IMG/VR virus record: IMGVR_UViG_3300033990_000306
Span: 24,475 to 88,474 of that record
Strand: one strand, 5' to 3'
Source: a virus
DNA: 64,000 nt
Positions 6,015 through 36,804 of this stretch are shown piece by piece. The stretch's first letter is position 1, and each line of letters starts with the position of its first letter. Position numbers and translations under genes: made by a program. Under the pieces are notes generated by a model. That model ran no database searches, had not been told where the DNA came from, and saw only the letters and a list, made by a program, of their open reading frames with translations.

Positions 6015-6053
6015 AGGGGAATAGGATTATATACTAGTTTAAAATAATGGCAT

Positions 6054-6836
6054 ATGACTGATTATACGTTTATAGACACGTTGAATATGTTTGAACACGG
6101 TTACAGAGGTATTATAAGGACACTTGACGGAGATACCGTTTATATTGACGAGCCAGAAAAATTTAAGCAGGAATTTAAAGAAGACACAGATAAGAAATTT
6201 AGAGTTACTGACTCTAATGGGAATTACTTGAAGCTAGATGTTGTGGAGAAAGGTTATGATGATGCTAATAAAAGGTTTGAGGGCTATAATGACCTTCTTC
6301 ACGTTAATAAGTATGATTATGGAGATGGGAGAGAAGAGGGAGGAGACCCTAGAAGAAATTTTGTTTTGAGTATAGCTGTTGATATGGCTAGAAAGAGAGG
6401 GCTCGGAGAGGAGGGAGATAAGGCTATAGAAGGTTATGTTATTAGTAAATTTGACTCCATACAGACTAGGTTAGCCAAATACTATGGTATTAACTGGTTT
6501 AAATTTGCTAAAGTGGAGAACCCTTTTAGAGTTATTATTGTTTCATTCTTGAAGCATTATTTACAGAAAGATATAGACAATATCGTTATGTCTTTTCAGG
6601 AAGGGGTTTTGAAGAGTAATTATATGAATGACAAGCCCGGTATGACACAAATGCTTAATGTTAATTATACTCCAGTTATAGAAGATGAGAAAGCTATGGT
6701 TGATACTGGGGTTGACGAGAGTCTTAATCCTGATTTGTATAGGGCGGAAATGAACAGGATTAATGAAATGAAAAATAAAAAGAAACAACCGGAAGGTGTA
6801 TACCACGAGTCTAAAACTCAACAGAAATTAAGGTGA
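6054..6836 (+). CDS. hypothetical protein in morphogenesis module
   Basis: 260 aa ORF with genome-typical codon usage; no recognised motif. Confidence 0.5.
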   Translation: MTDYTFIDTLNMFEHGYRGIIRTLDGDTVYIDEPEKFKQEFKEDTDKKFRVTDSNGNYLKLDVVEKGYDDANKRFEGYNDLLHVNKYDYGDGREEGGDPRRNFVLSIAVDMARKRGLGEEGDKAIEGYVISKFDSIQTRLAKYYGINWFKFAKVENPFRVIIVSFLKHYLQKDIDNIVMSFQEGVLKSNYMNDKPGMTQMLNVNYTPVIEDEKAMVDTGVDESLNPDLYRAEMNRINEMKNKKKQPEGVYHESKTQQKLR

Positions 6837-6840
6837 AATC

Positions 6841-7257
6841 TTGTCAGGTAGCAATGACAGTATTGACGTTCCGATTTCAATTTTGATGAATATGAAAGAA
6901 GATATAGGTACTTTAACAAATAAAATAGAAAATATAGAAACTAAAGTTGATACTATAGACAAGAAGTTAGAAGTATTTACTGAGAAAATTATTCCAAAGT
7001 TCGAAGAAAAAGTTGATAATGTCGAAGATAAAGTTGAAAAATCATTAGTAGTTTTTGACTCTAAGTTAAATTCTTATGAGAAAGAAAATAAATTTCTAAT
7101 TGAGAAACAAAAAATAGATAGAGACAAGTCAGAAGTTGCTTTGAGTGAAAAGAGGACTAAAGTACAATTTTTTCAATTAATTGCTTATTTGTTTATTAAT
7201 GTAGGGGCGAGTGTTTCTACAGTTCTTATTGTTTTACATTTCTTAGGAGGTATATAA
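6841..7257 (+). CDS. coiled-coil protein with C-terminal transmembrane helix (holin/XhlA-like architecture)
   Basis: Heptad-rich N-terminus, hydrophobic C-terminus, AGGTGA RBS before TTG. Confidence 0.45.
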   Translation: MSGSNDSIDVPISILMNMKEDIGTLTNKIENIETKVDTIDKKLEVFTEKIIPKFEEKVDNVEDKVEKSLVVFDSKLNSYEKENKFLIEKQKIDRDKSEVALSEKRTKVQFFQLIAYLFINVGASVSTVLIVLHFLGGI

Positions 7258-9023
7258 TGCCGATAAAGGATATGACTGAAATTGTAATTAAGGAAGAGGA
7301 CTCTAGGTTAGTTAAAGGTTTTGCTTCAGTAGAAATATTAGACAGACAAAACGATATGGTTCCCGTTGACGCTATGCAGGGAGCTATGTTGAAGTATATG
7401 GAGAGAGGAGGGCTTATTATGTATGGGCATTTGAATAAGCCAGTAGGAAAGGTTTTGAGTTGGGAAGTGAAGGAAGAACCTTCGTATGGAGTTCCTGCCG
7501 TTGAAATTATAGCACAGATTAATAAAGGTTATAAAATGGAAGATGAGGTTTGGGAATTAATAAAGTCTCATAAACTTAGTGGGTTTAGTATTGGAGGAAC
7601 AGCTACAGAAGTTGGGGAAGCAAAGATGGCTGATGGTAGTAATGCTAGAGTTTTGAAATCTTTAGAATTGAGCGAAATAAGTATTGTTGTTGAGCCTGCT
7701 AATCAGGGTGCATTAATAAATGCTGTAAGTATTGCTAAGGCTAGTACTGAAAAAGAAATTGATGATAATGAAGTAGAGAAAGTAGCAGAAGAGGCGGTTA
7801 AGGAAATTTTATTTGAAAGAGAAATTTTGAAAGAGAATATTAACAAGAAGAGTTATCCGTGGAGTAAGTGTATTTCTGACCAGAAGAAGCACGGTTATAG
7901 TGCTGGGTCAGCAAAAAAGATTTGTGGTTCTATAAAGGCTAAGTATGGTAAAGGAATTGGAATGTTAGATTATGACGAAGATTTTATTATGCATACTTTT
8001 ATAATTCAGAAGGCAGAAGGGAAAGACCAGAAAGAGTATAAAGCTAGACCTTCGAAAATGTTTATGGAGTATTGTATTCCTAAAGCTCTAGAAAAGGAGA
8101 GAGGAGATGAGGGTGGAGCTAGAAGATTATGTGGGTTTATATTTTATTATGAATTTCGGGCAGATTTGCTTGAAGCAGAAGATTGGGCTATGAATGGAAA
8201 AATTAATGACGATATGCTTCTGCACCACAATATACATAGTTATTTTGCTTATCAGACTAAGAGTAGTATTATAAGTAGACATTTGGAGAATGGAGTATTT
8301 CCAACTTTGCAATGGTTTGATAAGTGTGTAGCTAATTATGAAGGGGAAGAGTCTCCAGAGAGAGCTTGTATTTATTTGTGGAGTTCTAATTACTATAATT
8401 TGGGTAAAGAGAACGAGCCGAGTGTACCTGTTATTGATGACGAAATAAAGAATTTGAGGTTATATTTTCCTAATGTAATAAAGAGTATTGACACAATGAT
8501 AGAGGTAATGAAGCCTTTTCACGGGTTTAAGAATTGGGAAGATTGTATGAAGAAAATAGGAAAAGGTTCGAAGAAGTATAGTAAAGAGGTCAAGCAAAAA
8601 ATTTGTGGAAGACTTAAAGCTGACTATGAAAAAGAAAATAACATTGAGAAAGCTTCAAGACTAAAGAGAGAGGAAGTTCCTGATTTCGTTAGTTGTCCTT
8701 ACTGCGGAGAGAGTGATTTTGAAGTAGGAGAGAGTTACCCAGTTATACCTAGTGGAGAAGGTCCAGACCCTAGTATAGAGGGAATGTTCTATGAAGCTAA
8801 ATGTAAGAATTGTGGAAAGACTTCTAGGTTTACAGTTTGGGATACTGGTAATGACGAGGACATTGAGGTACAATTTGAAGATGAGGAGACCGAGAAAGAT
8901 TCTCACTATGACCCAGAGATAGTTGACGAAAGTGAGGAAGACAAAGAGAAGCGGGAGAAAGAGCGAATAGAGAGATTTCTTAGGGCTTCGAAGGTTGACC
9001 AGACAGATAATAAAAAAAAATAG
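7257..9023 (+). CDS. HK97-type prohead maturation protease with long multi-domain C-terminal extension
   Basis: VKGFASVEILDRQND, YGHLNKPVGK (His), LSGFSIGG (Ser), LSEISIV.EPAN in the first ~160 aa; followed by four Cys-pair helical repeats and a CPYC..CKNC zinc ribbon. Confidence 0.9.
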   Translation: MPIKDMTEIVIKEEDSRLVKGFASVEILDRQNDMVPVDAMQGAMLKYMERGGLIMYGHLNKPVGKVLSWEVKEEPSYGVPAVEIIAQINKGYKMEDEVWELIKSHKLSGFSIGGTATEVGEAKMADGSNARVLKSLELSEISIVVEPANQGALINAVSIAKASTEKEIDDNEVEKVAEEAVKEILFEREILKENINKKSYPWSKCISDQKKHGYSAGSAKKICGSIKAKYGKGIGMLDYDEDFIMHTFIIQKAEGKDQKEYKARPSKMFMEYCIPKALEKERGDEGGARRLCGFIFYYEFRADLLEAEDWAMNGKINDDMLLHHNIHSYFAYQTKSSIISRHLENGVFPTLQWFDKCVANYEGEESPERACIYLWSSNYYNLGKENEPSVPVIDDEIKNLRLYFPNVIKSIDTMIEVMKPFHGFKNWEDCMKKIGKGSKKYSKEVKQKICGRLKADYEKENNIEKASRLKREEVPDFVSCPYCGESDFEVGESYPVIPSGEGPDPSIEGMFYEAKCKNCGKTSRFTVWDTGNDEDIEVQFEDEETEKDSHYDPEIVDESEEDKEKREKERIERFLRASKVDQTDNKKK

Positions 9024-9067
9024 CCAAAGAAGTTTATACAGTAACTAGAGCGGGTTATAGTTCTGGA

Positions 9068-9433
9068 ATGCCTTTCAGAGGAGGATTATGGTTTCAAGTA
9101 GTTTCAGAGCCTAAGCCTCAAATGGAAGACTTAGAAAATTTATGGGCTAAAGGTAAATCTGACAAAAATGTTAAGGTACATTATGGTAAGGTAGATTTGG
9201 AGAGACCATTTTATTTAGACGTTGATAATATTTATAAGTTTAATAAATTTATGTATAAAGAATTAAAGGTAGATATGGACGCTTTTAATAGTAGTTCAGC
9301 AATTCAAAAGAAAGTTTTTGCCTATTTAGAGAGTAAGGGTTATGATGGGTTAGTATATTATAGAGACGGAGAACCTATTACTTTAGTAGCTTTTAATCCT
9401 TCTGCTGTAGAGTGGTATGATGAAAAGGCTTAA
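9068..9433 (+). CDS. ADP-ribosyltransferase-like (ART-PolyVal type) domain, probably translated as a fusion to the protease
   Basis: GLWF...VDLERPF...L.SKGYDGLVY...LVAFNPSAV pattern. The frame stays open upstream to the A9 run at 9012-9020. Confidence 0.55.
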   Translation: MPFRGGLWFQVVSEPKPQMEDLENLWAKGKSDKNVKVHYGKVDLERPFYLDVDNIYKFNKFMYKELKVDMDAFNSSSAIQKKVFAYLESKGYDGLVYYRDGEPITLVAFNPSAVEWYDEKA

Positions 9434-10356: not shown

Positions 10357-11618
10357 GAACACGAGCATTAACTTTTCAGGACATACTAACGTATTACGAA
10401 GGTAATGCGGCACAGCCTAATTTCTCACTTGGAGAATATCCTAGTATTCAGAAAGCAATAATCAACACAGGACAGGGTCTTGGAGTCTGGAATCCTATTT
10501 ACGGTTCTCAGGCTTGGTATCAGCTTAACACAGAAGCAAACTGGTTTTCAGCTATGCCTAAGCTTACTTGGGACAAGTCAGGTTTCAGAACGATACAGGG
10601 CTATACTAGAACAGCTTCCACTATGGCTATTAGTGAAACTTCAAGTCTGCCTACGCCTACAATACCTAACATAAATGTCATAAAGATAACTCCGAAAATT
10701 GCCATTAACACGTTTGAAACCTCACAGGTTGCACAACAGTTGGCTTCCGAGTCGATGGATGATATTTATGGTAACCTTGACGTAATAAGAAACTTCTATG
10801 CTACAGAACACGTCAAGCTGTTGAACGAACAGATAGGTCAGAAAGCGGTTGGTACTACAGTTGCAACTTCAGTTTCAGGAAGTGGAAGACTACAGTTTGA
10901 GAGTATAGACAGAATAATATCTTCATACCCCGAAGCTATAGCGGCTGGTCTTAGTGCAACTACTACGCCTACTATTAATCAGGTTATTAACCCGTGGCTG
11001 GGAGCATTACCTCAGAGAGGTCAGGGACCTAGTGTCTATGATGCTTTCGTTGTTAGTGGTAGTACAGCTATGGAGAAGAATGACAAGGGAACATTTACAG
11101 CCGTTAGTGACACATTTACCCCCGCCAATATAGCAGTAAGCACTTTGCTTTCAACTATACAGGGAGCGGCAATAAATGGGTCAAACGCTAACGTTGTAAT
11201 GACTGGTTATAACACCTATGCAAAAGTAACCAATCTCTTCCAGAGCAGGGTAGAATATTTCCCAATGAGTGAAACTCTTGTGAAGTACGACCTTAATGGT
11301 ATAGAGAGTGGAGAAGGTGTAATTGGTGGAGTTCAGGTAAGCACGGTCTTTGGTCTGCCTCTGATAAAAGCTGTAAACACACCTTCAAGTAACGGTAAGT
11401 TCGAGAATATGTATTTCTTGGACACGACTGATACAGAAGGATATGGTTACGGAAGACTTGGAGTACAGGTTCTTAACCCAACGACTTATCTTGAGACTAC
11501 AAGCAGAGACTTCATACTGCTACAACAGTTGGCATATGAGGGAATGTATTACACCATTGGTGAAAACGTATCCCGTTTCCCGGGCACTCTTGCTAAAATC
11601 AGAGATATTACAGGCTAA
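10350..11618 (+). CDS. major capsid protein, HK97 fold (archaeal tailed-virus type)
   Basis: Position after protease and scaffold. N-terminal NPIYG.QAW.QLN.EAN.F..MPK..WDKSG.R motif typical of archaeal head-tail virus MCPs. GGAGGTG RBS, TTG start, downstream terminator. Confidence 0.9.
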   Translation: MVRTRALTFQDILTYYEGNAAQPNFSLGEYPSIQKAIINTGQGLGVWNPIYGSQAWYQLNTEANWFSAMPKLTWDKSGFRTIQGYTRTASTMAISETSSLPTPTIPNINVIKITPKIAINTFETSQVAQQLASESMDDIYGNLDVIRNFYATEHVKLLNEQIGQKAVGTTVATSVSGSGRLQFESIDRIISSYPEAIAAGLSATTTPTINQVINPWLGALPQRGQGPSVYDAFVVSGSTAMEKNDKGTFTAVSDTFTPANIAVSTLLSTIQGAAINGSNANVVMTGYNTYAKVTNLFQSRVEYFPMSETLVKYDLNGIESGEGVIGGVQVSTVFGLPLIKAVNTPSSNGKFENMYFLDTTDTEGYGYGRLGVQVLNPTTYLETTSRDFILLQQLAYEGMYYTIGENVSRFPGTLAKIRDITG

Positions 11619-11635
11619 AATCATTAAACAATTTG

Positions 11636-11670
11636 CCTCCTAGTTTTTTTGGAGGCTTTATTATTTTTTT
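11636..11670 (+). terminator. hairpin plus T-rich terminator after MCP
   Basis: GCCTCC-N9-GGAGGC followed by TTTATTATTTTTTT. Confidence 0.7.
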
Positions 11671-11711
11671 ATAATTGAGTATTTTTAAGTATTAGTTAGT
11701 ATTTTAGTGGT

Positions 11712-12023
11712 ATGGACATAAGTGTGAGTACTTTCAAAGTAGACATTTTTAAAATTGAGTCTATAGTAGAGTATACTGACGAAGGAGAATATGTTGATAC
11801 TAATTTCGTAATGTCTCTTTCACATAAAAGTTCGAATGAGTATGATACTATGAAGGCTTATTCTATTCTTAATTCTATGAATAAGAGTGTTGGAAGTTAT
11901 AGTGATTATGTAGATTCTTTGGTTGATTATGTAGTTGGAACATTTGACGTTTTAAAAGCGGCTGTTAAGTTTACATTAGAGGACAGAGGAAGAATTGAAG
12001 ATGATGACGGTATGTATGCTTAA
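11712..12023 (+). CDS. small protein, possibly a degenerate QueF/QueF-like T-fold
   Basis: Spacing resembles QueF (GEYVD~TGQPD; ILNSMNK..GSYSD~YLFSFRN..DFHED; DRGRI~PRGGI), but the catalytic Cys and Glu are absent. Confidence 0.35.
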   Translation: MDISVSTFKVDIFKIESIVEYTDEGEYVDTNFVMSLSHKSSNEYDTMKAYSILNSMNKSVGSYSDYVDSLVDYVVGTFDVLKAAVKFTLEDRGRIEDDDGMYA

Positions 12024-12086
12024 GTTTATTAATTTAGTATTTTTAGAATAAAAAAACGAATAAATACTCAAAGGGAATGGGGAAGA

Positions 12087-14378
12087 ATGATAACCGAAGT
12101 AATTAAGAGAAATGGTAAGACTGTTAAGTATGATATAAAGAAAATTACTAAGGCAATATACAAAGCTATGATTGCTAGTAATTTGAGTAATATGAGTGAG
12201 GCTAAGAAATATGCCGAAGAAGTTGAGAAGAGACTGGGAGAGGTCTCCATAATAGGAGTAGAGAAATTACAGGATGTAGTTGTTGAAGTGTTAAGAGAAC
12301 ATAATATTCTTTTGGCGAACATTTATTCCAGCTATAGAGAGGAGAGGAGTTTAGCAAGGAGAGTTGTTGAGAGAATGAATATAGTTGACGAGCTTAAGTT
12401 GCCCAAGAATAGTCTAGAAATTTTAGAGAGTAGGTATTTGCTGAGAGATAAAAATGGAAATATTATTGAAACTCCAAAAGAGTTGTTTGAAAGAGTTGGG
12501 AAAGCAATAGGAGTTATTGAGTTGTGTTATGATTATATTAGTTTTAAGAAAGAGCTTGGAAATGGGTTGAGGTATTTTGGAGAATTGAATATAGCTAAAG
12601 CCGAAAAGGTTTTGAATAATATAATAGCAGAAGCTCCACCCAGAGATAAAAATCCTTTGACATTCAGGGAGTATGTTTCTAAGTATGGTGGGAATGCTAT
12701 TTCTTATTCTAAAAAGTTTATTGACTTTATGAGTAAGTTAAAGTTTCTGCCAAATACTCCTACACTTATGAATGCTGGACTTCCTAACGCCCAATTATCA
12801 GCTTGTTATTTGTTGGGCATAGAAGACAATATGGAGAGTATATTTGACATAGTTAAGGAGACAGCTTTAATACATAAAACAGGTGGAGGTACAGGTTTTA
12901 ATTTTAGTAACTTGAGACCTCAGAATGATTTTGTTAGGAGTACTCAGGGAGTAGCTAGTGGTCCAATAAGTTTTATGAAAATATTTGATGCTGTAACAGA
13001 AGAAATAAAACAGGGAGGTAAAAGAAGAGGGGCTAATATGGGAATGCTCAGATATGACCATCCCGATATTCTTAAGTTTGTTACATTAAAGGACAGTGAA
13101 AATACAATACTGAGAAATTTTAATGTTAGTGTTATTGTAGACGAAGAGTTTTTTACAGCATTGAGAAATGACGGAGAAATAAAATTAAGGAATCCTCATT
13201 CTGTTGAGGTTGGGGAAATTGCTGGGAAAATAAGTGCAAAGAAGTTGTTTAAAGAAATAGCTTATAATGCTTGGAAGTCGGGAGACCCCGGTCTATTTTT
13301 TGTTGATACAGCCAATAGAGATAATTATTTGGAGGGGTATGGTGATATAGAGGGTACTAATCCTTGTGGTGAAGTTCCTATGCATCCTTTTGAGTCTTGT
13401 AACTTGGGAAGTATTAATTTATCTAAATTTGTTGATGAGAATGGAAGGTTTAAGGAAGAGGAGTTTAGAAGTGTAGTGAGGCTAGCAGTTAGATTTCTTG
13501 ATGATGTTATTGATGCAAATGAAATGGGTATAGAGAACGTAAGAAGAATGAATAGAATTGGAAGAAAAATAGGACTTGGAGTAATGGGATTTGCAGATAT
13601 GTTAGTCCTTATGAAAATTAAATATGATTCTCTTGAGGCATTAAATATGGGAGAATACGTAATGAAGACATTGCACGAAGAGTCTTACAAAATGTCAGAA
13701 GCATTAGCCATAGAGAAGTATCCTTTTCCGAATAGTACAGAAAAAATTACAACAGCAAAAGGAAACAAGTATACTGCTGGTAAAATAGAAATTCCTAGAA
13801 GAAATTCTACAGTTCAGAGTATAGCTCCTACTGGGACTATAAGTATAATAGCAGACTGTTCTTCTAGTATAGAGCCTTATTTTGCTTTAGCTTATAAGAG
13901 AGATTATGACGCTATGGGAGTAAATGGTGGGCTTCATACTCTTGTGGAGAAGAATAAGTATTTAGAGAGGGAGTTGAGAGAGAGAGGAATATATAGTGAG
14001 AGTTTAATTAATAGAATAGCAGAGAGTGGAAACCTTAGTAATATAAAAGAAATTCCAGAAGACTTGAGAGAGTTGTATGTTACTGCTCACGAAATTTCTC
14101 CAGAGTGGCATATAATGATGCAGGCAGTATTTCAGAATTATTGTGATAGTGGGGTTAGTAAGACTATTAATATGCCTAACTCAGCTACGGTAGAGGACGT
14201 TGAAAAGGCTTATCTTATGGCTAGGGAATTAAATTGTAAGGGTATAACAATATTCAGAGATGGAAGTAAGAGTACTCAGGTTTTAAAGACTCTAAAGAAA
14301 GAAGTTAATTTAGAGTTGCCTTTGGAAATTCCATTAGACCCTAATGTAACTTGCGCTCACGGAACTTGTGAGCTTTAA
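12087..14378 (+). CDS. nrdJ: class II (adenosylcobalamin-dependent) ribonucleotide reductase with N-terminal ATP cone
   Basis: VIKRNG ATP cone, PNTPTLMNAG, QLSACY, GGGTGFNFS, RRGANMG, TNPCGE, SIAPTGTIS, SKTINMP, C-terminal CAHGTCEL. No beta subunit, no intein. Confidence 0.93.
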   Translation: MITEVIKRNGKTVKYDIKKITKAIYKAMIASNLSNMSEAKKYAEEVEKRLGEVSIIGVEKLQDVVVEVLREHNILLANIYSSYREERSLARRVVERMNIVDELKLPKNSLEILESRYLLRDKNGNIIETPKELFERVGKAIGVIELCYDYISFKKELGNGLRYFGELNIAKAEKVLNNIIAEAPPRDKNPLTFREYVSKYGGNAISYSKKFIDFMSKLKFLPNTPTLMNAGLPNAQLSACYLLGIEDNMESIFDIVKETALIHKTGGGTGFNFSNLRPQNDFVRSTQGVASGPISFMKIFDAVTEEIKQGGKRRGANMGMLRYDHPDILKFVTLKDSENTILRNFNVSVIVDEEFFTALRNDGEIKLRNPHSVEVGEIAGKISAKKLFKEIAYNAWKSGDPGLFFVDTANRDNYLEGYGDIEGTNPCGEVPMHPFESCNLGSINLSKFVDENGRFKEEEFRSVVRLAVRFLDDVIDANEMGIENVRRMNRIGRKIGLGVMGFADMLVLMKIKYDSLEALNMGEYVMKTLHEESYKMSEALAIEKYPFPNSTEKITTAKGNKYTAGKIEIPRRNSTVQSIAPTGTISIIADCSSSIEPYFALAYKRDYDAMGVNGGLHTLVEKNKYLERELRERGIYSESLINRIAESGNLSNIKEIPEDLRELYVTAHEISPEWHIMMQAVFQNYCDSGVSKTINMPNSATVEDVEKAYLMARELNCKGITIFRDGSKSTQVLKTLKKEVNLELPLEIPLDPNVTCAHGTCEL

Positions 14379-14416: not shown

Positions 14417-14830
14417 ATGGTCATAGATACAAGCGAAATAAGTACTCTGAATGCACAGGCTAGTTTTCCTAAAGTTTTGATAGGTTCAGGCTCTTTTAGT
14501 AAAGGAGCGTCAATATTTTCTACTACTTATATAGTGGAAAGTACTGGAAATGTTTTTGTTAAAGCTTTTGAGTATGGTACTGATGTAGCTAGCGGAGATG
14601 GTTCTATAAAGATTTCAGCAGTCAGTTCTTTCAATTCTTCATTCGCTCCTAGTACTACAGTCTCAACGACTTCATTTCTAGGAGGGGCTGGAATAGTATT
14701 TGCACCTTTCAACACGCAATATCCTATTGATACAGTTCTCACTATAACAGTCTCAGCTTCCGTGAGTACTACTTCAACAGTAGGATACGCCTTCGAGCTT
14801 TCTGAGCTTCAGACTGGTATATTCCGGTAA
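14417..14830 (+). CDS. putative virion (head decoration-like) protein
   Basis: S/T-rich beta protein with its own TATA box (14389-14394) and a downstream T-tract. Confidence 0.45.
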   Translation: MVIDTSEISTLNAQASFPKVLIGSGSFSKGASIFSTTYIVESTGNVFVKAFEYGTDVASGDGSIKISAVSSFNSSFAPSTTVSTTSFLGGAGIVFAPFNTQYPIDTVLTITVSASVSTTSTVGYAFELSELQTGIFR

Positions 14831-14910
14831 GTTTAAATTAGAGTTTGTTATTCTTTTTTTATGTCAAAACTAGCATTAGCTATGACTCTAATAAATAGGA
14901 GAAAAGAATA

Positions 14911-15618
14911 ATGGGATTTCAATGGAACGGTGGAACAACTGCAAATTATTACGTAACAGCAGACGATGTATTAAAGTTTTTAAAAATAGATAATTTGTAT
15001 ACTTCTACTACCCAGTATAATAGCGACATAACTTTGCTTAATACTATTATTATACCTTCAAATTGTAGTTATATAGATACTATAACAGGGAGAAGTTGGG
15101 GGAAAGTGTTGAGTCAGGTCGAGACCTATAGTATAAGTAAACCTTCTTACTTGGGTTGGTACTTGGTTGGGGCTCCAGTTTATTTAGAACATTATCCTGT
15201 TATTCCTGCTAGTAGTACTCATACTGCCGTTCAATTAGGAATTTGGAATGGTACTCAATATAGTAATTGGATAGGTACTATGGTTGAGGCTAGGTGGGGT
15301 AGTTATTGGTTTGATGATGAGAATGGAATTTTGTGGATAATAGGGTGGTACTGGTATATGGGTTATGAAGTTAGAATACAATATTATTATGGGTATAATA
15401 CTAGCCAGACTCCTTATATGGATGGGCAGATATATAATTTAGCTTTGTATAAAAGTGCTAAGATGTTTCTAGACAATGAGCGTTATACTGCTCAGGTTGC
15501 TGAAAATGTTGGGGGTATTGAAATGCAACGTTTCTACGACTGGATTAGTGATGAAATAAAGAAACTTGAGGATGCGGTTCTTGGTTATAGAATATTGACT
15601 AGAAGCTGGATGTCTTGA
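14911..15618 (+). CDS. head-tail adaptor protein
   Basis: YVTADDV..FL.I N-terminus, IDTITGRSW, VRIQYYYGY...I..LA and a helical C-terminus typical of SPP1 gp15-like adaptors. Confidence 0.65.
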   Translation: MGFQWNGGTTANYYVTADDVLKFLKIDNLYTSTTQYNSDITLLNTIIIPSNCSYIDTITGRSWGKVLSQVETYSISKPSYLGWYLVGAPVYLEHYPVIPASSTHTAVQLGIWNGTQYSNWIGTMVEARWGSYWFDDENGILWIIGWYWYMGYEVRIQYYYGYNTSQTPYMDGQIYNLALYKSAKMFLDNERYTAQVAENVGGIEMQRFYDWISDEIKKLEDAVLGYRILTRSWMS

Positions 15619-15675
15619 GGTTAGAATAACTTTTAGTACTATGTTTTACTACCGTAATTATGACGGAGGAAGACG

Positions 15676-16026
15676 ATGATGCAAGCCGTAGGTGGGCATC
15701 TTATAGCAGACTTATATGGAGTGAATGCTATTTTTCTGGAGAAAATTCAACCAATAAAGAATATAGTGGAAGAGGCTATAGCTGAGGGTAAGTTAACAAA
15801 AATATCTTCTGATTATTTTCAGTTTTCTCCTGTAGGAGTTAGTGGGATAGTTTTAATTTCGGAGAGTCACGTTAGTTTTCATACCTTTCCAGAGAAGGGT
15901 ATATTGACATTAGACTTGTATACTTGCGGGGATGTTATGTATTTGTTTAAGACTTATGAAATTTTAATTGGAATTTTACAGCCGGAGAGTGTTAAAACTA
16001 CTTTCTTGCAGAGGGGAGAATATTAA
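15676..16026 (+). CDS. speH: S-adenosylmethionine decarboxylase proenzyme family (pyruvoyl-dependent)
   Basis: GGHLIADLYG, FSPVGVSGIVLISESHVSFHTFPEKG (E-S self-cleavage site), LDLYTCG. Confidence 0.9.
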   Translation: MMQAVGGHLIADLYGVNAIFLEKIQPIKNIVEEAIAEGKLTKISSDYFQFSPVGVSGIVLISESHVSFHTFPEKGILTLDLYTCGDVMYLFKTYEILIGILQPESVKTTFLQRGEY

Positions 16027-16229
16027 TGAGTAGTGAAGAGGTTAAGTTGTTTCATAGAAGAGTTTTGAGGAAGGTTAGAGAGGTTTTGTATAGTATATTA
16101 GAAGACGAGTTTGGAGAGAATGTTAGTTATAATACTAAAGAGACATCTATAGAAATAAGTGGAGTAACAGTGAAAGAGGTTAAGGAAGCTTTAGAAAGAC
16201 CTTCTTGGAGAAAAAATTTATGGCACTAA
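16026..16229 (+). CDS. hypothetical protein
   Basis: Coupled to the upstream stop (TAATG), GAGGGG RBS. Confidence 0.5.
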   Translation: MSSEEVKLFHRRVLRKVREVLYSILEDEFGENVSYNTKETSIEISGVTVKEVKEALERPSWRKNLWH

Positions 16230-16262
16230 AGTTTATAAGGAAGTAACTAATAAAGGCATAAT

Positions 16263-17207
16263 ATGACGACTCCAACTATTTTTCCAGCAAGTGTATTTCA
16301 GGCTTCATTTGGGCAAGAAACTGCATTCGGTAGTGGTGCAGGTACTACATTAGGTGTTTTAGGTGTACAAATGTCTATTACTGATTTTAAGCAGGAGAAT
16401 CAATTTGAAGGTTTATATAGGCTGGGAAGCAGGGCGGCTCAATTATTTTATAGTAAAGGTTTAGAAGTTTCTGCTTCAGCTAATTTTACTATGGCTACAG
16501 ACAATAAGAGTTGGCTTAATTTAATGCTTAACTATGTTTCTAGTACTTCTGGTGATTATTGGACAATACCAGATGAGGTTGGGGAGTTAAAGAGTGCATT
16601 TATGGATTTGCAAGATGAAAAGGGTTATTATTATATTGCTAAAGGATTTGTTGTTGACACGGCTGATTTATCTTTTAAAGAAGGTGAAACTTGTGATGTT
16701 AAACTTTCTCTAAAAGGACAGACCGTTAATTACCAGAGTAGTACGGCATTGCCTTCTACTTTCCAAGCTGGAGGTACTTTAAGTTATCCTATTGATTTTA
16801 CTACGTGGGCTAATGTTCAGGTAGTTTATAACGGAAAATATGGTAGTACTACGTTTAGCGTTCAGCCTATAAAAGAATTAACAATAAACATTAAGAACAA
16901 TTTGCAATTCTATTATGGACTGGGTTCAATAGAATATGTAGGGTTTGTACCACAGAAACTAGAAGTTAGTGGAAAGATGGATATATTGCACGATAGTAAT
17001 TTGATTGAGCATATACTTACTACTTCGACTACTCAGAGTAGTACTAATTCTTATACTTTAGTTTTGACAATAGGAGGAACGGCAAGTCCTTATATTATAA
17101 CTATAGAAGGTATGTATTGGAATGACGGTAGTATGACATTTACTCCAGTAGACCCGATAGTTGATGAGTTTAATTTTAAGGCTAGAAATATTAAAGTAAC
17201 AACGTAG
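16263..17207 (+). CDS. major tail tube protein
   Basis: FGQETAFG N-terminus, Y.LGSR and YGLGS repeats, GFVVD...LSF..GE, LEVSGK; directly upstream of the chaperone and tape measure. Confidence 0.8.
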   Translation: MTTPTIFPASVFQASFGQETAFGSGAGTTLGVLGVQMSITDFKQENQFEGLYRLGSRAAQLFYSKGLEVSASANFTMATDNKSWLNLMLNYVSSTSGDYWTIPDEVGELKSAFMDLQDEKGYYYIAKGFVVDTADLSFKEGETCDVKLSLKGQTVNYQSSTALPSTFQAGGTLSYPIDFTTWANVQVVYNGKYGSTTFSVQPIKELTINIKNNLQFYYGLGSIEYVGFVPQKLEVSGKMDILHDSNLIEHILTTSTTQSSTNSYTLVLTIGGTASPYIITIEGMYWNDGSMTFTPVDPIVDEFNFKARNIKVTT

Positions 17208-30834: not shown

Positions 30835-30990
30835 ATGTTATATTGTTCTAATTGTAGAGTAAAATTTCCTAGAGAGGAATTGCAGGAAATATATTGTTTT
30901 AAGCATAAGAGGAAAGAATTGTTTTGCGATATGTGTGCTATAGAAATAGAATTTAATGGAGGGGATGAACATAGTTTTGTGGGTGAATGA
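30835..30990 (+). CDS. small zinc-finger protein (51 aa, below ORF-track cutoff)
   Basis: MLYCSNC...FCDMC; GGTGAG RBS. Confidence 0.5.
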   Translation: MLYCSNCRVKFPREELQEIYCFKHKRKELFCDMCAIEIEFNGGDEHSFVGE

Positions 30991-31675
30991 CATTTCTCCT
31001 AGTACTCAGGGAGAAGGGAAGTATATGGGTACGAGTATAGTTATACTGAGAATGATGTTATGTAACTTAGAGTGTAGTGCTAGTAAAGGAGGGTTTGATT
31101 GTGATACTTATTACACGTGGGATAAGAATAGGTTAGCCGAAGGAAGAAAGTTAACTGTAGAAGAAACTGTTAATGAGGTTAATAAGTATATGTCTCCAGA
31201 AAGAAACACTATAATGCTTACAGGGGGAGAACCTCTTATATGGCAGAAGAATGAAGAGTTTGTTGAAGTTTTGAAGAAACTTAAAGAGTTAGGTTGGAAA
31301 ATACATTTAGAGACTAATGGTACTCAGAAGTTAGAAATACAAGAGTTAATGGACTTTATAGCTATTAGTCCAAAGCAAACTCAGTACAAGTCTTATTATA
31401 ATAATGAAATAGTGCAGAGTTATTTTACAGTACCACATATATGGAAATTTGTTATAAGGACTAGGGAAAATGTTACTGACGCAATAGAATTTCTACTTAT
31501 TCACAAAGTTCCAACTTCTGATGAAATTTTTCTTATGCCGGAAGGAGTTACTTCTGAGCAACTACTTTCCTCAATAAAGAAATTTATAAACCCTAACATA
31601 ATACTCTTTCCAAGAAATAAATATAATAACATATATATTTCTAACAGAAGGCAAATAACGGAGGGATTTAAATGA
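30956..31675 (+). CDS. queE: 7-carboxy-7-deazaguanine synthase (radical SAM)
   Basis: STQGEG.YMG, CNLEC-x8-CDT.YTW (expanded cysteine motif), LTGGEPL, LETNGT, ISPK, WKFVI, LMPEG. Confidence 0.9.
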   Translation: MEGMNIVLWVNDISPSTQGEGKYMGTSIVILRMMLCNLECSASKGGFDCDTYYTWDKNRLAEGRKLTVEETVNEVNKYMSPERNTIMLTGGEPLIWQKNEEFVEVLKKLKELGWKIHLETNGTQKLEIQELMDFIAISPKQTQYKSYYNNEIVQSYFTVPHIWKFVIRTRENVTDAIEFLLIHKVPTSDEIFLMPEGVTSEQLLSSIKKFINPNIILFPRNKYNNIYISNRRQITEGFK

Positions 31676-31896
31676 AGAGAAACAAAGTTAAGACAAAGGT
31701 GGATGGAGAGAAGCTTATATTGACAGGATTTTCAGAGAAGGAGTTAAATTATTTTAAGGAGAATAAAGTAGTTTTCTTCGAGCAAATGAATGATATTTTT
31801 GTGTTGTATATAAATGACAATACTACATTTGCTACTGACGATGAGACTTATAAGCCTAATGAAGACACGAAAGACCACTTAAATATGTATAGGTGA
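31672..31896 (+). CDS. hypothetical protein
   Basis: Overlaps the queE stop; GGAGGG RBS. Confidence 0.5.
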   Translation: MKRNKVKTKVDGEKLILTGFSEKELNYFKENKVVFFEQMNDIFVLYINDNTTFATDDETYKPNEDTKDHLNMYR

Positions 31897-31903
31897 AAAT
31901 TAG

Positions 31904-32467
31904 TTGGGCGACAAAGAGGTAGAGGAAGCTATAAGGAGTTTGATGAAAGTAATGGAGGAAAATTATAATTGGAAGTTTACAGAAGAAGAGTATAGAGAAA
32001 CTCCAGTAAGAGTTAAGGAAATGTATAAAGAGTGGTATGGTAATAACACTTATGAGAAAATGACTGCATTTGACCCTATAAATAAATTTGACTCACTAAT
32101 AAGTTTGTCAAATATATCATATGGAGCTATATGTAGTCATCACTTAATGCCTTTTACTGGTAAGGTTTCTATAGTATATTTGCCTAGTAATAAAATTCTT
32201 GGGGCTAGTAAGTTAGCCCGTTATGTTAATAAATTTGCTTATAGACCAACCACTCAGGAAATAATGACAGAGAGTATAGCAAAAGCTATAATGGAAGAAA
32301 CTTCTGCTAGGGCAGTTATGGTTTATAGTACTGGTACACATACTTGTATGACTATGAGAGGAGTTAAGAAGAATGAAGCTACGTTTAAAGTTTCTACAAT
32401 ATTAGGAGACTTTAAAGTATTTCCGAGTTTGAAAGAAGAAGCTTTTGAGTTGGCGGAGAAGGAATAA
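31904..32467 (+). CDS. folE: GTP cyclohydrolase I
   Basis: ETPVRV, CSHHLMPF.G, LGASKLAR, TQE, HTCMTMRGV. Confidence 0.93.
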   Translation: MGDKEVEEAIRSLMKVMEENYNWKFTEEEYRETPVRVKEMYKEWYGNNTYEKMTAFDPINKFDSLISLSNISYGAICSHHLMPFTGKVSIVYLPSNKILGASKLARYVNKFAYRPTTQEIMTESIAKAIMEETSARAVMVYSTGTHTCMTMRGVKKNEATFKVSTILGDFKVFPSLKEEAFELAEKE

Positions 32468-33402
32468 TGATATACGTAATTACTTTACCGAGTATAGAAA
32501 CTAGGTATACAGGACAATGGTATAAGTGGATGTGGAATTATGTTGATTCTACTAAAAGACAAGACATAAGAGTTATGGGAGACAATCTAGCTATTAAAAT
32601 TCCACCTACAGAATTTTTAGATTTTCGTCAGTATTATTTTAAAGTTTATCCTTTTTTAATGGCTACTATAAAAGTAATTAAGAGTGGAGATACAGTATTT
32701 TTTATGGACGGAGAAACTGCTGGAGTAGAAGCTTTTGAGTACATAAGGAAAATGGAAAATATAAAAGTGGACATAAGAACATTTTGGCATTCAGGGACTT
32801 ATGATAAGTATGACTTGACAGCCATAAGAGGAGTTCACGGAGAGAATTTTGAGAAAGGATGGTTTGATATAACTGACAAGATTTATGTTAGTAGTGATTT
32901 CCATAAGAGACTATTAGTGGAGTCTCGTGGGGTAGAGAAAGAGAAGATAATAGTGACGGGCAATCCTCTAGATTTGAATTTGTTTAGTGATGGTACTAAG
33001 ACAATAAAGACTAACAATGTTATGTATGCTGGGAGATTAGTACCTGAGAAAGGTTATGACATAGTAAAAGAATTAAGAAAAAAGAGAATTGATATTACAG
33101 TTAGCTTGGAAAATAAATGGGACAAGAAGAGATTTTATGAAGAGTTAGCGGCTAGTAAAGTATTGTTTTCTCCTTCGAAACAAGATATGTTTGCTACGGC
33201 TTGTATGGAAGCATTTGGGTCTAATGTTCCAGTATTAGTGCCTGACATAGAAAACTATAAAGAAATAGTTCCAGAAAGGTATAGGTATAAAAAGTTGGAA
33301 GATATTGACTGGAATAATTTAGAAAAATTGTCTACTGGCAATGAAAGGAAATTAGTAGAGAAATTTCAGTATGAAAAAGTAATGGAGGAATGGTTTAAAT
33401 GA
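32467..33402 (+). CDS. GT-B (GT4-like) glycosyltransferase
   Basis: IETRYTGQW N-terminus, YAGRLVPEKG, FSPSKQDMFATACMEAF...PVLVPD. Confidence 0.85.
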   Translation: MIYVITLPSIETRYTGQWYKWMWNYVDSTKRQDIRVMGDNLAIKIPPTEFLDFRQYYFKVYPFLMATIKVIKSGDTVFFMDGETAGVEAFEYIRKMENIKVDIRTFWHSGTYDKYDLTAIRGVHGENFEKGWFDITDKIYVSSDFHKRLLVESRGVEKEKIIVTGNPLDLNLFSDGTKTIKTNNVMYAGRLVPEKGYDIVKELRKKRIDITVSLENKWDKKRFYEELAASKVLFSPSKQDMFATACMEAFGSNVPVLVPDIENYKEIVPERYRYKKLEDIDWNNLEKLSTGNERKLVEKFQYEKVMEEWFK

Positions 33403-33737
33403 TAACATATGTGTATTGTACATTTCAGAAAGAAGGATTTCACAAATGGAATGGAGCTACAGAAATTCCAGAGGTTAGTTATTTAGCTAACAAGCATAGA
33501 CATATATTTCATTATAAGGTTGGGGTTTCAGTAGAGCATAATGATAGAGAAGTAGAGTTTATTATGTTAAAACACCAATTAGAAACTTTCGTTGATAAAT
33601 GGAATAAGGAAGATTATGGAAGTTGTGAAACTCAGGCTTCTAGAATTTATGGGTATTTAGTTTACAATTATAGTAATAGAAATTATTTTGTAGAAGTTTC
33701 AGAAGACGGAGAGAATGGAAGTATAATGTTAAGTTAA
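33399..33737 (+). CDS. dpdL: QueD-paralogue T-fold protein, DpdL-like (putative CDG decarboxylase)
   Basis: EGFH.W, LANKHRHIF (matches the LxxxHRHxF signature), HNDREVEFI, GSCE, VSEDGENG. Confidence 0.7.
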   Translation: MITYVYCTFQKEGFHKWNGATEIPEVSYLANKHRHIFHYKVGVSVEHNDREVEFIMLKHQLETFVDKWNKEDYGSCETQASRIYGYLVYNYSNRNYFVEVSEDGENGSIMLS

Positions 33738-33783
33738 TGTGAATACGAAGATATATTTATATAGCATTTAGTTATATGAAACT

Positions 33784-35346
33784 ATGACAGAAGTATATTT
33801 TAGCGGAATAGAAGGTTCATTAGACGAATTAAAAGTTATGTTCGAGAATGGTTATAAAATTAATAACCTAATGACTTCATTCGCTTCTTTTAGAAGGATT
33901 CCCAAATTCATTGAGGAATTAAAAGAAATGAAAGACAAATATAAGTTTAAGTTAATTGTTGATAGTGGGGCTCACGCATTTCTTTTTGCTCTTAATGTTA
34001 AGAATAAAAAAATTACTAAGGGTTGGCACGATGAGGCTCAAATAGTGAAAGAGTTTGAGGGGAGAGAGGAAGAATACTTTGAGGAGTATTTTAATTGGTT
34101 AGACACTCACAGAGATTATTATGACTATGCTGTAGAGTTAGACATAGCTACAGTAGTTGGAGAAGAGAAAGTGAGTGAATGGAGAAAGAAATTGGCGGAG
34201 TCTAAACTTCCTATTATTTATGTCTTACACGCAAATGCGGGGGATACTTTTAAGACTGTTGAGTATTTTAAAGAGTTGGGAGCTACTTATATAGGTATAG
34301 GAGCATTGCCAGAAGAGTTTAATAAAATGTTAATGTTTGCGAGAGAAATAAGAAAGAATGGAATGAGTGTTCATATTTTTGCTTTTACTCCTAAAGAGTT
34401 GTTTAAGTATAAGGACATATTGAGTAGCGTGGACTCTACTTCTTGGTTGAGTGGAAGTAAATTAGCTAAAGCTGTAGAATTAAAAGGTAAGAGTTTAGTA
34501 GACGTTAATTTGAAAGAAGACAAGTTAAAGAAAATGTCAATACTCAGAGACAAGTTTTTTGATATGTTTGGGAGAAAGAAGGTAGAAGAGAAAACAAAAG
34601 GTAATCAGTATTGGTATTTTAATTTCTGGAATTTGTCTCAATACCAGAAATGGGCAGACAAGAATAATGGAGTTAAAGGTTATACTAAACAGTTGCAGGA
34701 AATAGAAGAAGGAGTTTTACCAGCACCTAGTTGGATGAATAATTTTGACAAGAATGGAATGCCTAAAACAAAATATTTAGCTAGTAGGTTTAATAATTAC
34801 AGAAGTGGGGCGTTTGCTAAAGGAATACAAAGTATGGCTATGTTTTGTGATATGTGTCCAGTTGGAGGACAGAGTGCAACAGGAGAACCTTTATGTCCTA
34901 AGTATGGTGCAGGAGAGGTCTGTTTCTTCTTACCGTACTGGAAAAAGTTGGGAATGAATACTAGGAATAAGCAACAGGTAGTAAGGACTCTAGAAGACTT
35001 GGTAGCAGAAGCTATAGTGAGGTGGCAATTCGCTAGGTTTCAAGAACAGTTGACTGGTGTTATAGACAAGAACGTAACTGCCCTTTATAAAGAGTTAGTG
35101 AGTTCTTTGGAGTTATATAATAGAGTAGCCTTTGGAGTACAGAATGTTAATACTCTTAATATGCTTAATATAGGAGACAATAAAGTTCAGGTGAGTATGA
35201 ATTTTGATGATGCTCTTGAAAAGGTGAGAGAAGTTTATGGAGAGAAACTCTCTAAGAAGATAGAAAAGAAAATAACAGAAGCATACGAAAATAAGGGAGA
35301 GAATGAAGAAATTGACTTCACAGAGAATAAACACCCACAAGAATAA
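33784..35346 (+). CDS. dpdA: DpdA-like 7-deazaguanine DNA transglycosylase (TGT barrel) fused to a zinc-binding/helical C-terminal domain
   Basis: LIVDSGAHAF, AVELD, VHIFA, SVDSTSW TGT motifs in the first ~230 aa; Cx2Cx12Cx8C from residue ~355, then long helices. Confidence 0.75.
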   Translation: MTEVYFSGIEGSLDELKVMFENGYKINNLMTSFASFRRIPKFIEELKEMKDKYKFKLIVDSGAHAFLFALNVKNKKITKGWHDEAQIVKEFEGREEEYFEEYFNWLDTHRDYYDYAVELDIATVVGEEKVSEWRKKLAESKLPIIYVLHANAGDTFKTVEYFKELGATYIGIGALPEEFNKMLMFAREIRKNGMSVHIFAFTPKELFKYKDILSSVDSTSWLSGSKLAKAVELKGKSLVDVNLKEDKLKKMSILRDKFFDMFGRKKVEEKTKGNQYWYFNFWNLSQYQKWADKNNGVKGYTKQLQEIEEGVLPAPSWMNNFDKNGMPKTKYLASRFNNYRSGAFAKGIQSMAMFCDMCPVGGQSATGEPLCPKYGAGEVCFFLPYWKKLGMNTRNKQQVVRTLEDLVAEAIVRWQFARFQEQLTGVIDKNVTALYKELVSSLELYNRVAFGVQNVNTLNMLNIGDNKVQVSMNFDDALEKVREVYGEKLSKKIEKKITEAYENKGENEEIDFTENKHPQE

Positions 35347-35388
35347 GAATAAGTCGTCTAGCGATTTATAAATTTGAGGTGAATAATA

Positions 35389-36804
35389 ATGGCTGAAAGA
35401 ATAGACTATACAAATATATTTAAGTCCCCAACTTTGTTTGCTATGAAGGTTTTAAAGGTAATGCCGTTGAGACACCAAGCACAAATATTAGAAGACGAAA
35501 GTTCAAGAATATTAATAGTAAGTGGAAGACAGGCTGGCAAGTCTACTCTCTTAGCAATTAAAGCTTTATGGACAGCTTTTGTTAAACCTTCACAGGACAT
35601 ACTAATAGTAGCCCCAACACTAAGACAGAGCCGAGTAGTATACCAACGAATAACAGACTTTATACTTTCCTCAAAAGAAGTTAAAGCTCACATTTTAAAA
35701 AGTAATATGGAAGAAACTAGATTTGACAATGGGAGTTATATTCGTTGCTTAACAGCTTCAAAGACTGGAGAAACTATAAGAGGGTTTAGTGCTACTATGT
35801 TAATATTTGACGAAGCTGGGAGTATAGAGAATGATGAAGTGTTTTCAGCAGTAGAGCCTTCTTTGGCGGTTAAAGGAGAACAATTAATACTAAGCGGTAC
35901 ACCAAGAGGAAAGAGGGGTTACTTTTATAATAACTATGCAACCAATGACAAAACAAAGCGTTGGCAAATATATAAGTTTACTTCGAGAGTTAACCCAATA
36001 ATAACAGAAGACTACTTAAAAGAGGAAAGGGCTAATATGACTGAGAATAGGTACTTAGAGGAGTATGAAGCAGAGTTTATTGACGAAATAGGGCTGTTTT
36101 ATCCTCAAGAGTTAGTAGCCCAATGTTCAGAAGACTATACTTATACATTAGAGAGAGAGGAAGGTTATAAGTATTATTTGGGTGCAGACATAAGTAGAGC
36201 AGGTAGTGATGAGACTAGTATAGTTATTATTGCTGTACCTGACGACCCAATTAGAAAGATTAGAGTAGTTTGGGCGGAAGGATTAAAGTATAGTGATATA
36301 ACAGTATCCTCCAGAGAAATAATAAGGAAGGCTTTAGCTATAGGAGTAGAACAAGTGTTAGTTGATGCTATAGGAATAGGAGGGGGAGTATATGATATTA
36401 TTCAGAAAGAGTTGGGGAGTAGTAAGGTTACTGCCGTTACTCTTGAAGGAGAAAGAAGGGAGACTGCCTATACTAATTTAAAGATAATGCTGGAGAAGAG
36501 AAGGTTAATACTTAATGAGAATGACACTAAAATGTATCACCAGTTTAGTAGTTACTCTTTAAAAGAAAAAGTAGGAGGAGGAATAAGAATAGTAAAGAGT
36601 GAGGAAATACACGATGATATAGTTGACGGCTTAGTGTTGGCTTTGTATGGAGTAGAGAGTATTACTAAGTTTACAGTTTTTGAAGGAGTTAATTTAGACA
36701 ATGATTTCTTTAAGAATTGGGCAGAACAGAGTGCAATGCAGTCAGTTATAAAGTCTCCACTTAATTCGCCTTTCTATTATCCGTTAGACTATTTGGAGAA
36801 GTAA
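35389..36804 (+). CDS. terL: terminase large subunit
   Basis: SGRQAGKS Walker A, LIFDEAG Walker B, SGTP.G, EYEAEF, GADISRAGSDETS and HDDIVDGL nuclease motifs. Confidence 0.93.
   Translation: MAERIDYTNIFKSPTLFAMKVLKVMPLRHQAQILEDESSRILIVSGRQAGKSTLLAIKALWTAFVKPSQDILIVAPTLRQSRVVYQRITDFILSSKEVKAHILKSNMEETRFDNGSYIRCLTASKTGETIRGFSATMLIFDEAGSIENDEVFSAVEPSLAVKGEQLILSGTPRGKRGYFYNNYATNDKTKRWQIYKFTSRVNPIITEDYLKEERANMTENRYLEEYEAEFIDEIGLFYPQELVAQCSEDYTYTLEREEGYKYYLGADISRAGSDETSIVIIAVPDDPIRKIRVVWAEGLKYSDITVSSREIIRKALAIGVEQVLVDAIGIGGGVYDIIQKELGSSKVTAVTLEGERRETAYTNLKIMLEKRRLILNENDTKMYHQFSSYSLKEKVGGGIRIVKSEEIHDDIVDGLVLALYGVESITKFTVFEGVNLDNDFFKNWAEQSAMQSVIKSPLNSPFYYPLDYLEK

Follow-up and report, generated by a model that had tools for sequence, protein, structure and literature searches.

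A DpdA-type transglycosylase fused to a putative zinc-knuckle module in the small-terminase position of an archaeal-type tailed virus

The gene considered here, dpdA, lies at positions 33784-35346 of the window, that is, of the whole 64,000-nucleotide (nt) stretch analysed, which corresponds to bases 24475-88474 of virus record IMGVR_UViG_3300033990_000306 (record total 88,474 nt). The source is an archaeal-type tailed virus from mine drainage. The same DNA occurs in 12 metagenomic DNA sequencing runs (mine drainage, tailings, and sediment, all in the form of contigs) and in no listed RNA run, and the names on the nearest proteins in a protein database search are those of Candidatus Parvarchaeum metagenome-assembled genome contigs. 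The dpdA product, of 520 amino acids (aa), comprises a predicted transglycosylase of the DpdA type followed by a C-terminal domain of about 190 residues, hereafter the C-domain, and the gene directly precedes terL, which encodes the large terminase subunit (TerL). A first-pass annotation made from the letters alone had read the C-domain as a module resembling the small terminase subunit (TerS). The parts of the locus that bear on this reading are listed below (AF2, AlphaFold2; ORF, open reading frame; pLDDT, predicted local distance difference test score; TGT, tRNA-guanine transglycosylase).

33784-35346, plus strand: 520-aa ORF encoding DpdA and the C-domain (ORF call)
33784-34668, plus strand: DpdA-type TGT barrel, residues 1-295 (phrog_887, AF2, Foldseek, invariant columns)
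34669-34785, plus strand: linker, residues 296-334 (low confidence, pLDDT 37-55)
34786-34968, plus strand: basic arm (RFNNYRSGxYA) and Cys4 knuckle C355/C358/C371/C380, ending with TRN, residues 335-395 (conservation)
34969-35133, plus strand: long alpha-hairpin, helices 396-424 and 429-450 (pLDDT ~90, conservation)
35134-35202, plus strand: strand-prone 'stalk' GVQNVNTLNMLNIGDNKVQVSMN, residues 451-473 (pLDDT <50 in both models; conserved in the family)
35203-35346, plus strand: pair of C-terminal helices with acidic end, residues 474-520 and stop codon (C-domain model positions 149-181)
35347-35388, plus strand: 42-nt spacer with TTTATAAA (35365-35372) and GAGGTGA (35376-35382) (direct sequence reading)
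35389-36804, plus strand: TerL, 471 aa (Terminase_6N, E 1e-14; phrog_2, E 1e-49)

The N-terminal part of the protein (residues 2-330) matches the PHROG family phrog_887, 'queuine tRNA-ribosyltransferase' (E 5e-13); the Pfam TGT family gave no match for the 520-aa protein. An AF2 model built from 15 homologues has a pLDDT of ~85-93 for residues 1-295 and is poor beyond them, and the PDB Foldseek matches of the modelled barrel are mostly tRNA-guanine transglycosylases (E 3e-5 to 2e-4), so that the TGT barrel placed by the first-pass annotation in the first ~295 aa is borne out. The motifs D60-S61-G62 (VDSGAH) and D217-S218 (SVDSTSW) are invariant in the 15 homologues, at identities down to 18%, as are E118 and D120 (alignment A1). 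D60 and D217 are the presumed counterparts of the TGT catalytic pair. On family match, conserved motifs, and model, the barrel is assigned as a DpdA-type DNA guanine transglycosylase; identity to the nearest isolated phage is only 25%.

The two-part build is kept in 20 homologues of similar length. The cysteine pattern that had been noticed in the letters (Cx2Cx12Cx8C) corresponds to C355-x2-C358-x12-C371-x8-C380, and all four Cys are invariant across an alignment of 28 diverse homologues, in which R413 and G425 are also invariant and R394 and E421 nearly so. The motif begins 60 residues past the barrel, and up to several hundred residues past it in longer relatives. In an AF2 model made on the 28-copy alignment the knuckle reaches a pLDDT of ~75-80 and the two long helices, of 29 and 22 residues, reach ~90, in agreement with the two helices of the first-pass annotation. 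The short beta-like stretch described there, QNVNTLNMLNIGDNKVQV, appears in the C-domain model as a low-confidence, strand-prone segment after the hairpin, and is followed by two further helices. Net charge is +4 for the arm and knuckle together and -4 for the last 14 residues.

When residues 297-520 were compared by phmmer with 1.84 billion representative proteins, only 33 matched, and in nearly all of them the region forms the C-terminal end of a protein of 410-540 aa or of an intein-bearing protein of 689-868 aa. The inteins sit either at the counterpart of C380, the fourth Cys, or at the junction of R340 and S341 in the basic arm, with none in the barrel; the relatives that carry them are P0002, P0008, and P0035 (L076, L077, L083) and P0013, P0014, and P0018. 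Inteins are also present in the RNA ligase next to a gut-phage DpdA (L035:11812-13968) and, at locus L108, in QueE (4602-6125) and TerL (10752-12878). A few C-domain proteins stand alone (P0043, P0046, P0047, P0048, P0066, and others), but they are probably fragments, because their contigs are short, one of them begins within the last helix of the barrel, and relatives in viral contigs are fused; we did not use them as free-standing TerS proteins. The C-domain sequence of the window itself has no match below E 0.07 in Pfam or PHROG.

Its homologues, however, link it to proteins outside this virus. They match the C-terminal part of phrog_887 (positions 353-488 of 509), and they match phrog_6902, 'terminase small subunit', with a best E of 5e-6, which the window sequence alone does not. 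A fold search of BFVD returned homologues only, one of them named as the TerS of Gordonia phage Jumbo. In Gordonia phage Katyusha the module occupies residues 291-455 of gp9 (465 aa, annotated as TerS and a member of phrog_6902), whose gene overlaps the start of TerL and is followed by TerL and portal. The C-domain profile matches Katyusha gp9 with E 2e-16, and an hhalign comparison of the C-domain with 17 gp9 relatives gave 98% probability (E 7.5e-14) over 102 columns. The Gordonia proteins of phrog_6902 and phrog_16015 (Katyusha and Kvothe gp9, 465 aa), the latter a second 'terminase small subunit' family with C-domain homology in its C-terminal part, share homology with the C-domain in the Cys4 knuckle, the hairpin, and the beginning of the stalk, and like the window gene they stand directly before TerL. 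Unlike the window protein, their 290 N-terminal residues are not detectably a DpdA barrel. We considered whether this N-domain (residues 1-290) is a degenerate DpdA barrel, which hhalign does not support (~1%); the annotation of ~62 kb (2283-63900) of the 75-kb Katyusha record includes no Que or DpdA gene. Many residues of the N-domain (L071:5122-5991) are invariant, AAHHWDDPTGP among them, and outside its own family it matches nothing in Pfam or PHROG; the module may here carry an enzyme domain that has gone unrecognised. Look-up of Gordonia gp9 in the protein Atlas gave scores all <0.9.

Among annotated phages, the module is also carried at the end of Bacillus phage BCD7 gp021 (757 aa) and of Streptomyces phage BRock gp36 (500 aa). 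These phrog_887 proteins likewise have a TGT-type barrel with conserved Asp motifs and FolE, QueE, and QueD-like neighbours, so that known phage DpdAs already carry the same C-terminal knuckle-hairpin module; the difference is that the window DpdA and its relatives abut TerL and those of BCD7 and BRock do not. In Bacteroides phage BS162P1 and at L124 the module is a separate gene adjoining a barrel-only gene. The knuckle and hairpin (profile positions ~17-137) are common to all lineages and the tails diverge. Judged from these sequence relationships, the C-domain is a separate, portable module.

The gene order around TerL was compared in ~150 loci gathered from viral and metagenome contigs, with the barrels clustered at 50% identity, and we counted ParB-like genes within 4 kb, TerL within 5 kb downstream, and TerL directly adjacent. 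Scans of genome contigs for related loci returned none at first and, in a second scan, only two distant loci. None of the 10 clusters of DpdA with a C-domain has a ParB-like neighbour; TerL lies within 5 kb in five and is directly adjacent in four (12 of 13 loci). By contrast, short DpdAs (240-300 aa), which lack the Cys4 module, form 27 clusters, 14 with a ParB-like neighbour and nine (56 loci) with TerL within 5 kb, and in no cluster is TerL adjacent, a ParB-like gene and/or a small ORF intervening at all 56 loci. Close relatives of the window protein (56-82% identity) have the fused gene directly before TerL in 8 of 8 cases, and the same order, followed by portal, is found at L163 (DpdA 27% and TerL 45% identical) and L162 (26% and 33%). 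The fusion and its placement before TerL are more than chance, being kept down to 26-27% identity. The pairing extends to two TerL types: at L001 the TerL that the fused gene overlaps is of another type (phrog_17415, E 1e-15) and has a Mu-type portal after it, and at L002 a 91-aa ORF lies between the fused gene and a TerL of the L001 type, with portal following. Locus L108 is a natural control for the fused arrangement: its genes run QueE-FolE-QueD-like-glycosyltransferase-DpdA, but the DpdA is short, and TerL is preceded by a ParB-like gene and a distinct small ORF. The pattern as a whole looks like a fusion, in that long DpdAs abut TerL and short ones have genes between.

No other TerS candidate was found among the neighbouring genes and the scanned large ORFs of the record, and none of the scanned ORFs resembles the TerS-slot proteins of related loci. 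The genes 5' of dpdA (QueE, FolE, glycosyltransferase, and QueD/DpdL-like) include nothing TerS-like by Pfam or PHROG, as the first-pass annotation had held in finding no other candidate before terL. Also upheld are its statements that dpdA ends 42 nt before terL (35347-35388) and that terL is detached from the head genes, since the portal (record 7565-9223; phrog_18178, E 1e-43) and the prohead protease (window 7257-9023) are far off. No terminal repeat was found between the first and last 3 kb of the 88,474-nt record.

A further comparison concerns locus L115, whose TerL is 44% identical to that of the window, as close as the TerL of L163. Here a short DpdA and a ParB-like gene are accompanied by a 168-aa protein whose N-terminus bears a helix-turn-helix (HTH), the gene of which overlaps the start of TerL. 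A profile of seven C-domains of the L162 type aligns with the part of this protein that follows the HTH (hhalign probability 65%, P 5.9e-5, 88 columns), an alignment that takes in the C-domain's hairpin, stalk, and tail. Of 110 random ORFs of 110-230 aa from the same loci, the best gave P 0.018, and 26 TerS-slot ORFs of unrelated phages all gave P > 0.09; pairwise comparisons of C-domains with the L115 protein gave z-scores of 3.3-5.6 over shuffles (4.5 for the window domain). No likeness to the C-domain is seen in those 26 ORFs or in the HTH-type TerS-slot proteins of L032 and L108, and viral contigs yielded no relatives of the L115 protein. These values are suggestive of remote homology between the L115 protein and the C-domain, and the match would fit a TerS core in which a zinc knuckle has taken the place of the HTH.

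The genes that precede dpdA (an ERCC4 nuclease, QueE, FolE, a GT-B glycosyltransferase, and a 112-aa QueD-like protein, identified by Pfam and PHROG) indicate which base might be inserted.

30956-33737, plus strand: 7-deazaguanine pathway block, directly 5' of dpdA
30956-31675, plus strand: QueE (Pfam and PHROG matches)
31904-32467, plus strand: FolE (Pfam and PHROG matches)
32467-33402, plus strand: glycosyltransferase (Pfam and PHROG matches)
33399-33737, plus strand: QueD/DpdL-like protein, 112 aa (Pfam and PHROG; motif LxxxHRHxF read from the sequence)

The QueD-like protein contains LANKHRHIF, which fits LxxxHRHxF, the signature of DpdL, a predicted 7-carboxy-7-deazaguanine (CDG) decarboxylase (PMC10516641). 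Because this motif is accompanied by a glycosyltransferase between FolE and the QueD-like gene, and because no QueC was seen near 30956-33737, the predicted pathway suggests a 7-deazaguanine base that is not preQ0 and may bear a sugar. The same pathway gene order is found at L108 (6101-8827), and a nucleotide-sugar epimerase and a second glycosyltransferase are encoded at record 14436-16429. The element TTTATATA lies at 33756-33763, 28 nt 5' of the dpdA start; both it and TTTATAAA look like archaeal-type TATA boxes. With the TATA-like TTTATAAA followed by GAGGTGA in the 42-nt spacer, terL may have a promoter of its own.

We favour, at about an even chance of its being correct, the explanation that DpdA is here fused to a diverged TerS-like module that is both the small terminase of this lineage and the DNA-handling partner of the enzyme. 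The barrel would exchange guanine in double-stranded viral DNA for a 7-deazaguanine base supplied by the upstream FolE, QueE, and DpdL-like genes and possibly decorated by the glycosyltransferase. The module would have the layout of a small terminase, with a zinc knuckle in place of the usual HTH: the basic arm and Cys4 knuckle would contact DNA, the long alpha-hairpin would mediate self-association, and beyond the strand-prone stalk the helical and acidic tail would contact TerL. Since the module occupies the TerS slot and no second TerS turned up, the same polypeptide is most likely what recognises the viral DNA on behalf of TerL. Probably it also provides the transglycosylase with a grip on DNA, replacing the ParB-like genes of short-DpdA loci; a role in the base-exchange step is supported by the exclusivity with ParB-like neighbours together with the dependence of bacterial DpdA on DpdB. 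The analysis establishes the identity of the barrel, the invariant Cys4 motif and the hairpin, the homology to Gordonia proteins annotated as TerS, the gene-order pattern, and the exclusivity with ParB-like genes; zinc binding, ring formation, TerL binding, and any coupling of modification to packaging are inferred.

Such a layout can be compared with that of established small terminases, in which a protomer of 15-21 kDa has an N-terminal HTH, a helical-hairpin oligomerisation core, a stalk that is either alpha or beta, and a flexible C-terminal segment that binds TerL (PMC9611059). The C-domain (~22 kDa) has, as predicted, the same order of parts as the canonical TerS proteins Sf6 gp1, P22 gp3, SF6 G1P, PaP3, HK97, and T4 gp16, and like theirs its gene lies just upstream of terL. 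It differs from them in the zinc knuckle that takes the place of the HTH, in its fusion behind a 295-residue enzyme, and in that comparisons by sequence and by fold matched it to no solved TerS.

Several results weigh against this explanation. An HTH is common to all solved TerS structures (PMC9611059), and none is seen in the C-domain model, nor does the domain match any HTH family. A sequence-profile search of the PDB with the C-domain gave no match below E 1. In the fold comparison with TerS that the first-pass annotation had suggested, the PDB search returned generic alpha-hairpins only (Z up to 7.6) and no solved TerS in the top 50; because the fold searches gave only such hairpins, membership of the TerS family cannot be claimed. 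The TerS label of the Gordonia proteins is a database annotation and not an experimental result. The L115 match has a probability of 65% from a profile of seven sequences, and the whole-family profile reaches only P 0.014 against the same protein, in the tail. Five of the clusters with a C-domain are not near TerL: in the gut-phage forms an RNA ligase is next and TerL is 31-45 kb away, and TerL is also not close by in forms followed by a ribonucleotide reductase, in a broad group of 656-1075-aa proteins, and in BCD7 and BRock. DpdA genes in general sit near terminase genes, so adjacency to TerL is partly inherited gene order. Finally, C-domain and ParB-like neighbours are fully exclusive (0 of 10 against 14 of 27 clusters), and a pure base-exchange role fits this exclusivity equally well. 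The TerS-like module of the first-pass annotation is partly and indirectly supported by gp9 homology, synteny, likeness to the L115 protein, and the lack of another TerS, and not by an HTH, a solved-TerS fold, or the copies far from TerL.

The most serious alternative, to which we give a lesser but still substantial chance, is that the C-domain is an accessory of the transglycosylase only, dimerising DpdA and holding or opening DNA in a DpdB-type job, with TerS encoded elsewhere or absent. Bacterial DpdA requires the ParB-like ATPase DpdB to insert preQ0 (PMC10164549), and we take the ParB-like neighbours of short DpdAs to be DpdB-like partners; no ParB-like gene was found in the 88-kb record, and none in any C-domain, in jackhmmer searches with four ParB-like neighbour seeds. 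The predicted DpdA and C-domain fusion would resemble bacterial DpdA-DpdB in joining a transglycosylase to a DNA-handling partner, although unlike DpdB the C-domain is covalently attached and has no ParB fold or NTPase motif. Its place before terL would on this account reflect a common order, DNA-modification genes followed by the terminase. Pairs of a ParB-like gene and a short DpdA, followed by a small ORF, TerL, and portal, occur in many unrelated phages (L004, L005, L032, L043, L046, L108, and L115) and look like phage counterparts of bacterial DpdA-DpdB at the start of the packaging module; short DpdA and ParB pairs are thus also found just upstream of terminase genes. Many of the fused genes are far from TerL, among nucleotide-metabolism genes, and the small ORFs preceding TerL in BCD7 and BRock could be TerS, PHROG scans of them having given no TerS call either way. 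Set against a purely accessory function are the module in the TerS slot of Gordonia phages, apart from any DpdA and, in Katyusha, from any annotated Que gene over ~62 kb; the absence of a small ORF between the fused gene and a nearby TerL in four of five clusters, unlike all 56 short-DpdA loci; the resemblance to the TerS-slot protein paired with a related TerL at L115; and the failure to find another TerS among the neighbours and scanned record ORFs. A base-exchange role could also exist instead of, or besides, a packaging role.

A stronger form of the favoured explanation, the hypothetical modification-packaging checkpoint of the first-pass annotation, which we hold to be unlikely as matters stand, would build the transglycosylase into the small-terminase assembly, such that the complex that marks DNA for TerL also installs the 7-deazaguanine base; modification and packaging would then be coupled, or only DNA engaged by the enzyme would be packaged. 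In its widest form, the knuckle-hairpin module would be an unrecognised class of TerS with enzymatic cargo, namely DpdA here and the HHWDDPTGP domain in Gordonia phages.

The module might instead be an adaptor that docks DNA-modifying enzymes onto a portal, replisome, or nucleoid protein without being equivalent to TerS, which we regard as improbable. Two enzyme-like N-terminal domains bear it (DpdA and the gp9 N-domain with its invariant HHWDDPTGP), and the divergence of the tails beyond the shared knuckle and hairpin would reflect differing partners; yet the strongest positional signal is for TerL specifically, and no partner has been identified. Very improbable indeed is a single enzyme in which the Cys4 region is merely the structural zinc subdomain of the TGT superfamily plus helices: TGT-family enzymes do bind structural zinc, with Zn ions in the compared DpdA and TGT structures (PMC10164549), and Foldseek alignments to bacterial TGT cover ~365-375 columns, but the C-domain is not an integral part of the barrel because it is found with the different N-domain of the gp9 family and as a separate gene beside a barrel-only gene (BS162P1, L124), and moreover 60 residues, and in longer relatives up to several hundred, separate the motif from the barrel, and the short DpdAs lack it entirely.

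Papers on the DpdA subfamilies (PMC6884629, PMC10516641) mention neither a C-terminal module nor a link to the terminase, and no description of the module or of its terminase link was found in the literature searched. For annotation, the present comparison connects two 'terminase small subunit' PHROG families with the C-terminal ends of 'queuine tRNA-ribosyltransferase' proteins. It also bears on how DpdA enzymes, which by the current view act on phage DNA once it has been replicated, find viral DNA, and on why some need a ParB-like partner. If the module proves to be an accessory alone, it would be a fused functional replacement of DpdB, useful for reconstituting phage DpdAs that have resisted heterologous assays. 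If the favoured explanation is true, the fusion of DpdA to a TerS-like module would offer a concrete and testable route, targeting via the complex that recognises DNA for packaging, and the small terminases, whose other members are described as HTH proteins, would gain a zinc-knuckle class.

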